A stretch of DNA of 64,000 bases from a virus: IMG/VR virus record IMGVR_UViG_3300044797_000318, positions 64,001-128,000 of that record; one strand, written 5' to 3'. The notes under the pieces were generated by a model. It saw nothing but the letters and a program-made list of their open reading frames with translations. It searched no databases and had not been told where the DNA came from. Shown one piece after another: positions 39,039-46,043 of this stretch (position 1 is its first letter; each line of letters opens with the position of its first letter). The position numbers and the translations under genes are program-made.

Positions 39039-40774
39039 TACGCCCTCAGATCGAAAGCTCTACCAAATGGAGGGTTGAAAGCGCTGCCGCTGGTAATCAA
39101 CCAAATGACGTCTATTCCGGGATGTTTCATTTCTGCTATGTCGGAATCCAAAAGAAATCCGTCCGAAACAACAATCAGAAAATCGCATTTGCCAATGTGT
39201 TGTTCATAGTCAGTAAAGAACTCAGCATACTTAGTTCCACCGCGACCAACTACCTTGACTTTGGAAATTGACTCGGCATCTGCTTTCTTGACCTTAGTAG
39301 CGTCTTCCCAATAAATATCAGCATCAGCTGGGACGATAGTGCCTTCCGAACGCTCATCCAAGGAAGTTAGTTGAGAGAGACCAAATGCCATATCGTCTTT
39401 GCTCATAGAACCCGAGGTATCCAGCAAACAACCGAAGTGAGCATAATAGTTTTTTCTCTTAGGCACCAAAAGACCGGAGAACATAGGTCGAGTCCTAAAA
39501 CGAGTCCAATCATTGCGACCATTGCCAGCTCTTGCTCTGAGCAACCTAGTGCGGATAATATCCTGCCAAGTCACCTTGGGAGCAGTTAGTTTTCCAAGCT
39601 CATCTTCCAAAGCTGCTGGAACGTGGCCTGCTAATTTACGAGCCGCTTCCATTGCATCAGAAATTCTCTTGGCCAACTTCTCTTCCGATTCTTCAGAATC
39701 CATGTGATCATCCACTGTGCCACCCAGCCCAAAGATATCTACGCCACCTCCGCAGCTATCGCATGGCTGATCGCCATTGCAGCTTTGACCTTGACCATTC
39801 CCAGGTTGTTGTCCATGTTGCCCTTGATCTCCACAATCACAAGGTTGATCACCGCCGTGATTATGTTGGTCTCCTGGCTTTTGCCCTTGACCATCTTGCT
39901 TGTCCTGACCATCTCCTGGCTGTGGTTTCTCGCCTTGTTGGCCTTGACCTTCTTGCTTATCTTGACTTTGTTTGTCCTGCTTGCCTTGTCCAGGTTGAGA
40001 CTTAGATCCCTTCTTGTCGGGCTTCTTATATATTCCCAGGCGACCACACTTAGGGCACTTTGGTAGAAGCTTATAGAGAAGATCGTAAATCTTTTCTGGC
40101 CTCTTCATATCCTCTTCGAGAGCTGGATCTCCATAATAGAACTTGACACCCTTCTCTCGCTTTTCTAATAGCTTACGCTCAGCAGGAGTCAATTCACGAT
40201 CCTCATTGGGAGCGGGTAATTCCACTTGCGGTGCGTTGGGGTCTTCAATAGTAGGATTGAGATCCTCAAAGCCCGGAATCTTAGCAAAGGGATCCTTGAT
40301 TAGTTCACAGAAATTAGAAAGCGTCATATAGCGGCCCAAGTTCTTAGTGAACTCAACGGCCGGGTCTTTCTTACGAGTCTTGAAATCTTCCATCACTGTG
40401 CCATTGACAATATAGTCTACGGCAATATTCCACAGCTTTGGATTTCTAGATCCTCTTCTAGAAGGATGCATATAGAGGGCATGCCATGCTTCGTGTCCAC
40501 AAACAATTCTTAGACCTTTGATAGAATGTTTGAGAACAAATTTGGGGTTCCAATAAAACCTCTTGCCATCGGTAGCGGCAGTGGGTATGTTCATGGTACA
40601 AACATGATCTACTGGATACATCAGTGAGAAGACCAATGGATCCCCTCCTAGGCCACTTCCCACATGCTCATTGTCGTATCTAACTCCTAGCTCTAGGAAA
40701 ACCTTCCCAAGTTTGGATTCAGCCTCAGCCACTAATTTCGCATCGATCTTACCGACTACTCTCGAGAACTTCAT
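39038..40774 (-). CDS. DUF2201-like metallopeptidase plus VWA domain protein
   Basis: TAATDG, HEAWH, WNIAVDYIVN; Gln/Gly-rich linker; DTSGSM MIDAS, GRGGT, SDG. Confidence 0.88.
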   Translation of the reverse strand: MKFSRVVGKIDAKLVAEAESKLGKVFLELGVRYDNEHVGSGLGGDPLVFSLMYPVDHVCTMNIPTAATDGKRFYWNPKFVLKHSIKGLRIVCGHEAWHALYMHPSRRGSRNPKLWNIAVDYIVNGTVMEDFKTRKKDPAVEFTKNLGRYMTLSNFCELIKDPFAKIPGFEDLNPTIEDPNAPQVELPAPNEDRELTPAERKLLEKREKGVKFYYGDPALEEDMKRPEKIYDLLYKLLPKCPKCGRLGIYKKPDKKGSKSQPGQGKQDKQSQDKQEGQGQQGEKPQPGDGQDKQDGQGQKPGDQHNHGGDQPCDCGDQGQHGQQPGNGQGQSCNGDQPCDSCGGGVDIFGLGGTVDDHMDSEESEEKLAKRISDAMEAARKLAGHVPAALEDELGKLTAPKVTWQDIIRTRLLRARAGNGRNDWTRFRTRPMFSGLLVPKRKNYYAHFGCLLDTSGSMSKDDMAFGLSQLTSLDERSEGTIVPADADIYWEDATKVKKADAESISKVKVVGRGGTKYAEFFTDYEQHIGKCDFLIVVSDGFLLDSDIAEMKHPGIDVIWLITSGSAFNPPFGRAFDLRA

Positions 40775-41691
40775 ATGCGTGTCCTTATGGTTATGACATT
40801 ATTATTGTATGGATCCGTGTCTTTGACAATGGAACCATCGTCAAGGTAAGGTTGAAGAAACTTGTTAAGCATCTTGTAATCTGTCTTTCCGTTATACTCA
40901 AGACCTAGTTCTCGGGCTAATACTTTCATTGTAATTGGTAGGCGATCCCTGATAATTTTGTCAATAATAGCTTTTCTTTTGCTAGCTAACTGACCGATAT
41001 TTGTTTGCCTCTTTGGCTGGTCCGTGTAAAATCTGCTCTCGGGCTTGTCCCAAATCCTTTTGCGACCCATCTTGAAGAAGACATCAATATCAGCAAACAT
41101 GGCTCGACAACCACTATCATAAACCTTGATGATGTAGTAGGTTTTTCCTTTCCTATGTTTGGGTCTGACCAAAAAATTTTCTTGGTATCTTTCATTGAGA
41201 AGACTAGCTAAATACTGAACCTCCTCTTGGGAAAAACCGTGAGTAGAGATCTCGGTCCTCAGCCTATATGGCAATTTATTGTAGTCTATACTGCCATCAT
41301 CAGCAAGCCAGTGTGCAATGATTTGAGCATTCAATTCAACAACTGACGGAACTACCTTTTTATATGTGCCTTCTATAGGTTTATACCAAAGCGTATGATA
41401 CGCGGTAAGCGAAGGAGAAGCAACCGTAACAAAACTACAGCCAGCCCTAGCTGCACCAGTCCTTTTATCCACCGATCTGTTGTAGTATATTTGCCCATTC
41501 TGGTGGGCTGGTGGAAGAAAATTGTCGAAAATACTCATTTCATAACGAAGATACTCTTCGTCTTTGACGGCACGACCCACCATCAATTTGGCATTGATGT
41601 TATTTGCTGCTATCGACAAATGTCCGTCCCCCAGCATTAGGCCAGTAAGAGCGTTATGTTGTTCTTGTGTTAGCGGAACAAAATTGTGCAT
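40771..41691 (-). CDS. LAGLIDADG homing endonuclease
   Basis: GLMLGDGHL and WLADDGS. Confidence 0.85.
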   Translation of the reverse strand: MHNFVPLTQEQHNALTGLMLGDGHLSIAANNINAKLMVGRAVKDEEYLRYEMSIFDNFLPPAHQNGQIYYNRSVDKRTGAARAGCSFVTVASPSLTAYHTLWYKPIEGTYKKVVPSVVELNAQIIAHWLADDGSIDYNKLPYRLRTEISTHGFSQEEVQYLASLLNERYQENFLVRPKHRKGKTYYIIKVYDSGCRAMFADIDVFFKMGRKRIWDKPESRFYTDQPKRQTNIGQLASKRKAIIDKIIRDRLPITMKVLARELGLEYNGKTDYKMLNKFLQPYLDDGSIVKDTDPYNNNVITIRTRI

Positions 41692-43315: not shown

Positions 43316-43617
43316 TTTTGATCTTTCTCGGGCTCAAACTCTAATGTTCCGTCCACAAAGCGATCATATATTTCTTGATGAATACTCCACGGATCTTTCC
43401 GCCCAAATGATAAAGCACCACCAGTATACATCATCCTTCCGATAAGAACTTCATCACATCGCAACTCTGTTAGCTTATCGCATAAATATTGGCCTGCATA
43501 ACATACCTCTCGAATAATAGGGTTTTGCGCCAAATTGACTGGCATTTTTGGATCATTATCAATTTTTTCTGACCAACGAAGAATATCTTCGTTCGTCACT
43601 GAATTAGGTCTTGGCAT
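43312..43617 (-). CDS. hypothetical protein
   Basis: ORF with AAGGA RBS. Confidence 0.6.
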   Translation of the reverse strand: MPRPNSVTNEDILRWSEKIDNDPKMPVNLAQNPIIREVCYAGQYLCDKLTELRCDEVLIGRMMYTGGALSFGRKDPWSIHQEIYDRFVDGTLEFEPEKDQN

Positions 43618-43627
43618 TTATTCCTTA

Positions 43628-43855
43628 TCACTTGAAAACTTGTAGTCTGGCTTTTCTCATTTCATCAGCCATTTTATAGGCCACCATCGCTATGCGCTCT
43701 TGGCGTGCCTTGGATCTCTTTTGATAATCCTCATCCCACATTTCATTATCAATAATGTTGGAACAAGTTCCTTCTTTGGTTATCAAGGCTTGCATGGCAG
43801 CGATAGCAAATTGATCCCGCAAACGCAATTCCTTCTCATCATCTTCCACTGACAT
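43628..43855 (-). CDS. conserved small phage protein
   Basis: LRDQFAIAAMQALI...AYKMADEM pattern; GAGGA RBS before ATG 43855. Confidence 0.7.
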   Translation of the reverse strand: MSVEDDEKELRLRDQFAIAAMQALITKEGTCSNIIDNEMWDEDYQKRSKARQERIAMVAYKMADEMRKARLQVFK

Positions 43856-43871
43856 TTTATTCCTCATCAAT

Positions 43872-44104
43872 TTTGGGTAATGCCGGCTTTCTCCCCGGCT
43901 TTGGTACACTTTTCCACAGGTGCAAAAGGGTTCTTGCGAACCGTCTGGGGCTGGGCGTGAGGAGTTCCTACGGAACCGCTCTGGTGTCAATTCACCTCGT
44001 CAAAGGAGGTATTCTTCCTCCTACCACAGCTCTACTAACGAATCGGCTAGCTCACTTTTAGATTATTGCTAACCTCAGCTAAATTAGTAGAGGGATTACC
44101 CAAA
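43872..44104 (-). ncRNA. candidate structured ncRNA (~233 nt), family not recognised
   Basis: 10-bp closing stem TTTGGGTAAT/ATTACCCAAA with several internal helices, two capped by GCAA tetraloops. Confidence 0.7.
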
Positions 44105-44145
44105 TCTTATTCTTCATTTGCTATAAAAACAAAAATAGCTTCTTA

Positions 44146-44235
44146 TCAAAATAAGAAGCGTGCGATGGTGATACATCCAACAATAATGGTGTCTAACCAA
44201 ATAACAAGGCCTAAGGCGGCAAGAAAGTCTTTCAT
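44146..44235 (-). CDS. 29-aa hydrophobic peptide
   Basis: MKDFLAALGLVIWLDTIIVGCITIARFLF; AGGAAG upstream. Confidence 0.45.
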   Translation of the reverse strand: MKDFLAALGLVIWLDTIIVGCITIARFLF

Positions 44236-44250
44236 CTTTATCTTCCTGTA

Positions 44251-44325
44251 TGGTATCCCCAACTGGAATCGAACCAGTACTGTTTGTTTCGAAGACAAAC
44301 GTGATATCCGTTTCACTATGGAGAC
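44251..44325 (-). tRNA. tRNA-Arg(TCG)
   Basis: TTTGT-CTTCGAA-ACAAA arm; CCA. Confidence 0.9.
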
Positions 44326-44336
44326 ATATACTTACT

Positions 44337-44421
44337 TGGTGCGCCTGGTAGGAGTCGAACCTACTATGGGTTTCCCCGCTTGTTTCGTAGACAAGGGCCT
44401 TATCCGTTAGACTACAGGCGC
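44337..44421 (-). tRNA. tRNA-Arg(ACG) with long variable arm
   Basis: CTTGT-CTACGAA-ACAAG; variable arm GGG-GAAA-CCC; CCA. Confidence 0.88.
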
Positions 44422-44432
44422 ATTTTCTTACT

Positions 44433-44511
44433 TGGTATTCCCGGTCCGATTCGAACGGACATCGATCCAATTACGGTGCTCAGAGGTAGAAGCTCTGTCC
44501 GATACGGGAAC
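44433..44511 (-). tRNA. non-canonical D-armless tRNA-Arg(TCT)-like RNA
   Basis: Acceptor GTTCCCG/CGGGAAT; 7-nt linker; CAGAG-CTTCTAC-CTCTG; 20-nt extra region; perfect T-arm; ACCA. Confidence 0.75.
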
Positions 44512-44520
44512 ATACTTACT

Positions 44521-44595
44521 TGGTGATCCTAATGAGGGTCGAACTCATTCCTGAACCTTGAGAGGGTTCCGACCTAGCCGGTAGTCGATAGGACC
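44521..44595 (-). tRNA. tRNA-Glu(CTC)
   Basis: GAACC-CTCTCAA-GGTTC; CCA. Confidence 0.9.
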
Positions 44596-45888: not shown

Positions 45889-45962
45889 TGGTGACCCGTA
45901 ACGGTTACGATCCGATGTTCAAGAGTTGAAAACACTTTGTCCTACCATTAGACGAACGGGCC
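45889..45962 (-). tRNA. tRNA-Glu(TTC)
   Basis: Anticodon loop TT-TTC-AA; variant T-loop ATCGTAA; CCA. Confidence 0.82.
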
Positions 45963-45966
45963 ATTA

Positions 45967-46043
45967 TGGGGTGTCGTACGAGTTTTGATCTCGTCAAAGA
46001 ATGAGTCACAGTCATCCGGGTTCGCCAGCTCCCTCACGACACC
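45967..46043 (-). tRNA. tRNA-His(GTG) with encoded G-1
   Basis: G-GTGTCGT/ACGACAC-C-CCA; loop CT-GTG-AC; T-loop ATCAAAA. Confidence 0.85.

Follow-up and report, generated by a model that had tools for sequence, protein, structure and literature searches.

RNAs that combine many helices with a long, invariant and largely unpaired core are rare, and those described so far have historically proved to be ribozymes, riboswitches or RNP scaffolds. Phages are one source of unusual small RNAs: the tRNA cluster of phage T4 encodes, along with its tRNAs, small stable RNAs (species 1 and 2) that probably derive from the tRNA transcripts by processing. GOLLD and ROOL are elaborately folded orphan RNAs of phages and prophages that are often found near tRNA islands, and neither is known to have a protein partner (10.1101/2024.12.08.627333). 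Candidate structured RNAs of viruses have also been collected on a large scale, the figure given by Fremin et al. 2023 for IMG/VR being 8,495 (PMC10690425).

The locus described here is a 233-nt element at positions 43872-44104 (minus strand, which is the gene strand; RNA position i = 44105 - i) of a 64,000-nucleotide stretch of viral DNA, the whole of which is referred to as the window. The window belongs to a 138,671-base IMG/VR virus record (G000) that is estimated to be 32% complete. An earlier note had proposed a multibranched RNA at this site, and the sequence, the coordinates and the minus strand that it gave are all correct. We suggest, with a probability of roughly 0.5, that the element is a stand-alone structured non-coding RNA gene, accessory to the translation island of one huge-phage clade. 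The translation island comprises the tRNA arrays, TrpRS and TyrRS.

A conserved RNA outside the known families

The gene strand of the element specifies a genuine structured RNA that has been conserved in evolution. The MFE of the minus strand is -82.6 kcal/mol, compared to -62.5 +/- 4.3 in dinucleotide shuffles (z -4.66, n=200), and none of the 200 shuffles folded as well. The plus strand of the element folds more weakly (z -2.52), in agreement with the strand chosen in the earlier note, and the most divergent homolog, L044, gives a fold z of -4.92. Across the seven distinct sequences of the family, G-U occupies 56 of the 490 pairing cells and A-C occupies 5, an excess that indicates that the element is read on the gene strand. 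Invariant positions number 95 of 233 among the seven sequences, and 83 of these fall within RNA positions 78-233. The element had also been described as GC-rich in an AT-rich background; this is true but modest, the GC content being 0.48-0.51 versus 0.36-0.43 nearby. One RNA library had a small word share of the stretch and yielded a single contig, at 43436-43568, outside the element.

The element is outside every Rfam 15 family. At gathering score, Rfam 15 returned the tmRNA and 10 tRNAs from the window and none at the element. With permissive filters (E<=10, positions 43600-44400), the element was touched only by noise, which consisted of animal lncRNA and snoRNA models at 12-19 bits against gathering thresholds of 35-65. 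The models of RNase P RNA, group I intron, 6S, SRP RNA and the self-cleaving ribozymes gave no match at E<=10 in the same interval, and four homolog loci likewise gave no real match to Rfam 15. ARAGORN called 13 tRNA/tmRNA genes in the window, none of them at 43872-44104. The claim in the earlier note of an unrecognised class of structured RNA is upheld by the lack of any Rfam 15 match at gathering score or at E<=10, by the ARAGORN result and by covariation in seven distinct homologs.

Homologs were collected with the neighbouring AAA ATPase gene as bait, which gave 20 related viral loci; the relatives of the window are phages of 350-480 kb. Four of the 20 loci (L004 and L005, which are identical, L006 and L009) proved to hold the element in full length when searched with nhmmer and a covariance model. 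A covariance-model search of whole records placed the element in four of 20 related phage records, whose completeness is 5-62%; the four records with a completeness of 90% or more gave no hit. Pattern scans added three members on metagenome contigs, namely L043, which differs from the window by four substitutions, L045 (identical to L047) and L044. A metagenome pattern scan returned six stretches, five of which are members. The family stands at seven distinct sequences of 215-235 nt, all from one phage clade, with pairwise identities of 64-85% (98% for the window and L043) and covariance-model matches of 140-265 bits. The element is single-copy in G000 and in each positive record. The runs that contain the stretch carry the labels peat, soil, freshwater and lake-water, and DNA contigs from two other runs hold the L043-type variant.

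Wider searches did not extend the family. A second model, built from the seven sequences, matched none of 20 element-lacking or TyrRS-bearing records, and the GenBank phage collection held no DNA match for the element or the surrounding 6 kb. Pattern scans of viral contigs returned known contigs and seven other stretches, none of which passed the covariance model; these seven were rejected, as their nhmmer match was confined to the pattern and they read as coding sequence. The scan of the genomes of 185,579 prokaryote species gave 16 stretches, none matching past a 14-15-nt hairpin. A profile of the neighbouring 101-aa ORF, which has 99 relatives in a protein homology search, led to two new viral loci, with the element in neither. 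The element is accessory and narrowly distributed, being present in a few related giant soil/peat phages and absent from most of their relatives.

Several other features of the window and its record are listed at the end of Table 1. Among the tRNA genes, similarly long Arg(acg) genes are present in L009 and L012. The record also encodes a CTA-anticodon tRNA of the amber-suppressor type (Pyl according to ARAGORN) at G000 C1:61584-61658, approximately 2.3 kb before the start of the window, which hints at read-through or recoding of TAG. The free-standing LAGLIDADG endonuclease ORF lies between the AAA ATPase and a DUF2201 metallopeptidase/VWA-like gene, and a homolog was seen only in L010 of the 20 loci.

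Table 1. Features of the element, its surroundings in the window and the genes that flank it in the other members of the family
Feature	Position in the window	Strand	Remarks
P1, 5' strand, UUUGGGUAAU	44095-44104	minus	pairs with 43872-43881; 10 bp
P1, 3' strand, AUUACCCAAA	43872-43881	minus	16 nt between its end and the ATG at 43855
P2 domain	44030-44092	minus	outer helix 44084-44092 / 44030-44038
P2a inner helix	44068-44074 / 44045-44051	minus	16-nt apical loop, 44052-44067
P3 hairpin, AGGAGG/CCUCCU	44004-44022	minus	7-8-nt loop; both-side change
P4 hairpin, GGUG-AAUUGA-CACC	43983-43996	minus	invariant in 7/7
P5 variable hairpin	43959-43981	minus	both-side changes in 6/9 pairs
P6 domain	43914-43955	minus	outer helix CCCAG/CUG-U-GG and inner hairpin P6b
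P7 hairpin, GCCGG-GGAGMAAG-CCGGC	43882-43899	minus	2/5 pairs changed on both sides
ACCA, invariant	43902-43905	minus	candidate nested long-range helix with UGGU 44023-44026
Antisense ORF, 62 aa	43873-44061	plus
75-aa ORF, PHROG 2201/20565-like	43628-43855	minus	starts 16 nt 3' of the element
Intrinsic-terminator-like hairpin and T run	44138-44159	minus	33 nt upstream of the element
29-aa hydrophobic ORF, MKDFLAALGLVIWLDTIIVGCITIARFLF	44146-44235	minus	ends inside the terminator-like hairpin; conserved in L043
tRNA-Glu(ctc), tRNA-Arg(acg), tRNA-Arg(tcg)	44251-44595	minus	end of the upstream tRNA array
Downstream gene in L006, L009, L044: TyrRS			PF00579, E 1.3e-69, with SYY C-terminal domain
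Downstream gene in the window and L043: 75-aa ORF
Downstream genes in L004: 75-aa ORF, then TyrRS
Downstream gene in L045: 101-aa ORF			after 50 nt that include a ribosome-binding site left over from the 75-aa ORF
Upstream gene in L006: TrpRS
Upstream gene in L009: DUF4326 protein
Upstream genes in L004, L044, L045: ORFs			no assigned function
Upstream of the element in the window: 29-aa ORF and terminator-like hairpin			after the tRNA array
Phage tmRNA	1196-1545	minus	126.8 bits, tag ANDNAAPMALAA; followed by three tRNA-Thr genes
LAGLIDADG endonuclease ORF, free-standing	40771-41691	minus	PF03161, E 2.4e-21
tRNA-Arg(acg)	44337-44421	minus	85 nt, with a variable-region insert of ~10 nt
Rfam-only tRNA	45892-45962	minus	44.9 bits, not in ARAGORN; 5 nt from tRNA-His 45967-46042

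Helices, covariation and the invariant core

The helices were named P1 to P7 and compared among the seven distinct sequences. In a structure-blind MAFFT alignment, from which P2a and P5 were excluded as arms with a shifting register, 94.7% of the 358 cells are standard pairs and 16 of the 52 pairs have changed on both sides. When the 3' partners were slid by 1-3 columns in this alignment as a control, 37-49% of the cells were paired and 0-4 pairs showed changes on both sides. The covariance-model alignment, which is biased towards the structure, gave 95.1% paired cells and both-side changes in 31 of 70 pairs, and none of 500 shuffles was equally good. Because the comparison comprises only seven distinct sequences, all of one phage clade, these shuffle controls overstate the significance, and the invariant core is beyond the reach of covariation on the same account. 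Three of the substitutions in the near-identical variant (L043 and the X4/X5 contigs) fall within helices, and all three preserve pairing.

The helices differ in how they have evolved. Two pairs of P1 have gone from G-C to A-U on both sides, and its sequence is otherwise nearly invariant. P2 recurs as the same two-helix arm in each homolog, built from different sequences, and five of seven outer pairs have changed on both sides; in L044 the arm has shrunk to a plain hairpin, so the P2 arm and its 16-nt loop are dispensable and the arm is variable. P3 shows replacement of A-U by G-C on both sides in three of the seven sequences, and it is flanked by the invariant GUGGU (44023-44027) and UUGAC (43999-44003). 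The helix of P5 is retained with unrelated sequences (GGUUCC/GGAACU, CUGCC/GGCAG, UGAUCG/CGA-AUCA). Both-side changes occur in two of five outer pairs of P6 and in four of five pairs of P6b, and the internal strands of this domain, CCAGACG and CCUUUUGCACC, are invariant. P7 directly adjoins the 3' strand of P1. Further invariant stretches are GGAAA, and GAG.AA in the loop of P7. The almost invariant core consists of GUGGU, P3, UUGAC, P4, the CCAGACG/CCUUUUGCACC internal loop, GGAAA-GUG-ACCA and P7.

The invariant ACCA would be able to pair with the UGGU upstream of P3. Folds that were forced to form this helix lay 0-2.6 kcal/mol above the MFE in all seven sequences, and in L044 the helix is present in the MFE itself. 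The candidate UGGU/ACCA helix would enclose P3-P6 in a second junction; both of its strands are invariant, which puts it beyond a covariation test. An all-against-all scan of covarying columns for pseudoknots returned 214 pairs, mostly noise with seven related sequences, and was set aside.

The earlier note had drawn a secondary structure and had proposed that it be checked for covariation in homologs. The compensatory changes across the seven distinct sequences are strong, and they support its closing stem UUUGGGUAAU/AUUACCCAAA (P1) and the pairings CUCUACUAA/UUAGUAGAG (P2), AGGAGG/CCUCCU (P3), GUUCC/GGAAC (P5, a helix that survives quite different sequences), GGUUC/GAACC (P6b) and GCCGG/CCGGC (P7). 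Its GGUG/CACC helix (P4) is present, and it is invariant and hence beyond a covariation test. Other parts of the drawing had to be replaced. In lieu of UAGCU/AGCUA and AGGUUA-GCAA-UAAUCU, the homologs have GGUUAGC/GCUAGCC with a 16-17-nt loop. The CUUUU/AAAAG helix is broken by a C in three of seven homologs and clashes with the covarying CCCAG/CUGUGG. The GNRA loops to which the note had drawn attention are found on P6b only in the window and L043 (GCAA) and in L045 (GAAA), the other homologs having AU-rich non-GNRA tetraloops.

Several motif assignments were tried and rejected. A hammerhead-like UUGAYGA failed as its 3' half varies (AGAG, AGAA, GCAU, UGAC, AUAG), and a K-turn at P4 is a misfit in register. 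Mimicry of SD/anti-SD by P3 was dropped, AGGAGG being AGGGGG in other members, as were CsrA-type GGA loops, since the P7 loop of L044 is without GGA.

The internal covariation and the excess of G-U on one strand only also bear on whether the locus acts as RNA in the first place. A MITE-like mobile DNA, with P1 as its 10-bp terminal inverted repeats, would account for inverted ends that are perfect and highly conserved and for the patchy presence among relatives. However, no record has more than one copy, the syntenic slot never changes, and the flanks show no target-site duplication. An antisense gene for a small protein would explain why the window and L009 have several stretches in common in their ORFs on that strand, but indels of 1 and 2 nt break the frame in L006, L045 and L044. 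We consider either form of a non-RNA explanation to be extremely improbable.

Genomic setting and proposed mode of action

The element occurs inside polycistronic units that belong to the translation island of these phages. In every member it is found on the gene strand and at one syntenic slot, with the conserved 101-aa ORF and the AAA ATPase downstream of it. Its immediate neighbours vary on both sides (Table 1): TyrRS is the next gene in three of the seven members, the second gene in one, and absent behind the element in three. That the element heads or precedes a phage TyrRS in four of seven, and that most relatives are without the element, had been overlooked in the earlier note. Its placement downstream of an Arg/Glu tRNA array holds in the window, where 146 nt, containing the 29-aa ORF and the terminator-like hairpin, separate tRNA-Arg from the element, but the link is loose, as the last tRNA is 1.2 kb from the element in L004 and 2.3 kb in L009. 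Homologs of the 75-aa ORF follow the element in L004 and L043, and in L032 one precedes TyrRS without the RNA. The island also carries TrpRS, with 0-1.3 kb between it and the TyrRS slot downstream, in L006 (268-1227; PF00579, E 4.7e-56), L044 (2382-3341) and L032 (1612-2574). Neither TyrRS nor TrpRS was found in the 138.7 kb of the record of the window.

The spacing around the element is tight. An upstream stop codon falls 2-3 nt before P1 in L006, L004, L044 and L045, and the element is thus packed like a tRNA gene. In six of the seven members the start codon of an ORF follows P1 at a distance of 15-17 nt; spacers of 10-20 nt are usual in these phage genomes. The minus strand has no terminator-like site between the element and the ORF start, and P1 is clear of the ribosome-binding site, which sits outside the structure. 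With no overlap of P1 and the ribosome-binding site and no terminator after the element, no expression platform is visible. A weak sigma-70-like promoter was noted by eye in the window (TTGATA at 44149-44144, 18 nt, TATAGC at 44125-44120); it overlaps the upstream terminator and was not among the predictions of the promoter/terminator scan.

According to the reading that we favor, the element would be transcribed on the gene strand within a polycistronic transcript, considering that it is without its own terminator and that the space for a promoter is usually lacking. The RNA would fold into a multi-helix body closed by P1, with the variable arm P2, the variable hairpin P5 and the near-invariant core, and, as with the neighbouring tRNAs, it may be excised, the cut being at the P1 base. 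It would then act in trans as a folded RNA, possibly as a scaffold or decoy, and its target would be a host factor, or one general to these phages, in tRNA/translation metabolism; it would not be a switch for one particular gene. The reading of a stand-alone RNA is based on the retention of the fold while both neighbours change and on the survival of the element without TyrRS. The window and L045 have no TyrRS at the locus, and in these the fold is retained with P5, P7 and P2 remodelled. The lack of an expression platform and the packing in the manner of a tRNA gene point in the same direction.

A search for a partner encoded by the phages was performed with tblastn. The queries were 1,434 ORFs with a length of 70 aa or more in the three larger records that bear the element (G000, G018 and G020), and the element-lacking G001, G002, G009 and 240 kb of G013 served as negatives. 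For 23 ORFs, two or more of the positive records gave a match and none of the negative ones did. Two of the ORFs were in all three positives and in none of the four negatives, and both are spurious frames over tRNA-Leu genes. As no ORF tracks the element, there is no sign of a dedicated phage partner in these positive records, which are 32-62% complete; it counts against the stand-alone reading that a partner gene could be located in the unsequenced parts of incomplete records. It counts against it as well that the ORF 15-17 nt after P1 (6/7) and the TyrRS in the operon (4/7) fit a leader equally.

The main rival, a possibility that we take seriously and nonetheless hold to be rather unlikely, is that the element acts in cis, as a leader or operator of the operon behind it, which would ancestrally have comprised the 75-aa ORF and TyrRS. 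A protein (the phage TyrRS, for example), a ligand or a tRNA would bind the core 5' of the ribosome-binding site and modulate initiation. There is precedent for this kind of control, as ThrRS of E. coli acts on the thrS mRNA. In four members there is no promoter room, and there the RNA is physically part of an mRNA. At most loci the element is without its own promoter or terminator, the end of P1 lies 15-17 nt before the start codon in six of the seven members, and TyrRS (PF00579, E 1.3e-69) is the next gene in three members and the second in one. The short spacers, however, are normal in these genomes, and TyrRS genes of the same clade (69-87% identical) occur without the element in L031, L032, L033 and L035. 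In turn, three of the seven members have no TyrRS behind the element, and their fold is still kept by compensatory change. The ribosome-binding site being outside the structure, with no conserved alternative pairing, and the missing CCCUCU tract in L044 are also difficult to reconcile with a leader.

The tight wedging of the element between cistrons would also fit an RNA-processing module. This would be either a ribozyme that cleaves itself and so splits the cistrons apart, or a punctuation signal at which host RNase P, RNase Z or RNase III cuts. Stacked on each other, P1 and P7 are similar to an acceptor/T-arm minihelix, with a 5-bp stem that has no linker to the 3' strand of P1 and a 2-nt P1-P2 linker after the 5' strand. 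The sequence of P1 is conserved beyond the needs of pairing, and an invariant core of this size is as expected of catalysis. On the other hand, the P7 loop GGAGMAAG differs from the T-loop consensus and no NCCA follows P1. The models of tRNA, RNase P, tmRNA and the known ribozymes fail to match even at E<=10, a conserved core of ~150 nt is needless for a simple punctuation signal, and relatives manage without the element. A processing module is thus an unlikely explanation, to be ranked below the leader.

More unlikely still, we judge, is a new class of phage RNA that interacts with tRNA or is catalytic, or alternatively a small self-assembling RNA-only particle like ROOL/GOLLD. The invariant internal loop with UGGU beside P3 would bind NCCA ends, be it the ACCA of the RNA itself or the end of an uncharged or precursor tRNA. 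For the phage tRNA/aaRS island, such an RNA would serve either as a sensor of the T-box type or as a processing ribozyme akin to RNase P.

Comparison with known systems

The element is specific to huge phages that encode their own tRNAs, tmRNA and aminoacyl-tRNA synthetases. As it is gained and lost with the translation island, it may help such phages to take over or buffer host translation. Its narrow distribution, seven distinct sequences from one uncultivated phage clade, limits its general importance for now. A search of the literature on huge phages with tyrosyl-tRNA synthetase found nothing relevant.

YrlA, a tRNA-like Y RNA that is bound by Ro60/Rsr, invites comparison, as the 5' and 3' ends of the element pair in a stem of conserved sequence. 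In contrast to the YrlA/Ro60 system, the element has no Rfam Y-RNA match and TROVE genes are not linked to it. TROVE (Ro60-like, PF05731) ORFs of 529-597 aa are present in five of 10 related huge-phage records: in one of the four that bear the element (G020) and in four of the six that lack it (G001, G002, G007, G013). None was found in the element-bearing G000, G018 and G019, and the one in G020, at C1:33721-34167, is ~100 kb from the element. Species 1 and 2 of T4 offer an analogy, being phage RNAs in a tRNA cluster, whereas the element is 1-2 kb from the tRNAs in most homologs. With regard to riboswitches, a conserved core is present, no platform was seen and the downstream genes are heterogeneous.

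The T-box comes to mind because the element is a ~220-nt structured RNA immediately 5' of TyrRS in three of the seven members, and its invariant UGGU could in principle pair with an NCCA end. The T-box model RF00230 matched nothing at E<=10 in the window and nothing at E<=1 on four homolog loci. As a positive control, the same model gave 119.8 bits on the TyrRS leader of an unrelated contig, L037, and 102.7 bits on L040. These are canonical T-boxes in viral contigs with a distant TyrRS (43-46% identical), at L037 2721-2946, directly upstream of TyrRS, and at L040 1601-1806. As for a specifier (UAC/UAU), the UAC of the P3 loop is GAC in L044 and L045, and the UAC in P2 is present only in the window and L043. 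No terminator was found between the element and the ORF start, and the ribosome-binding site lies outside the fold. The element thus differs from a T-box in that it persists without TyrRS and has no terminator, sequestrator or conserved Tyr specifier.

With GOLLD (RF01998) and ROOL (RF03087), the element shares its location in a tRNA/aaRS island and the finding of no co-occurring phage protein. It matches neither RF01998 nor RF03087, is far narrower in distribution, with its seven distinct sequences, and is 215-235 nt in length, compared to >500-800 nt. This size is suited to direct biochemistry and structural work, which makes the element easier to approach experimentally than GOLLD or ROOL. 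By analogy, then, the closest known systems are GOLLD and ROOL with respect to context and orphan status, and the T-box with respect to the position before TyrRS.
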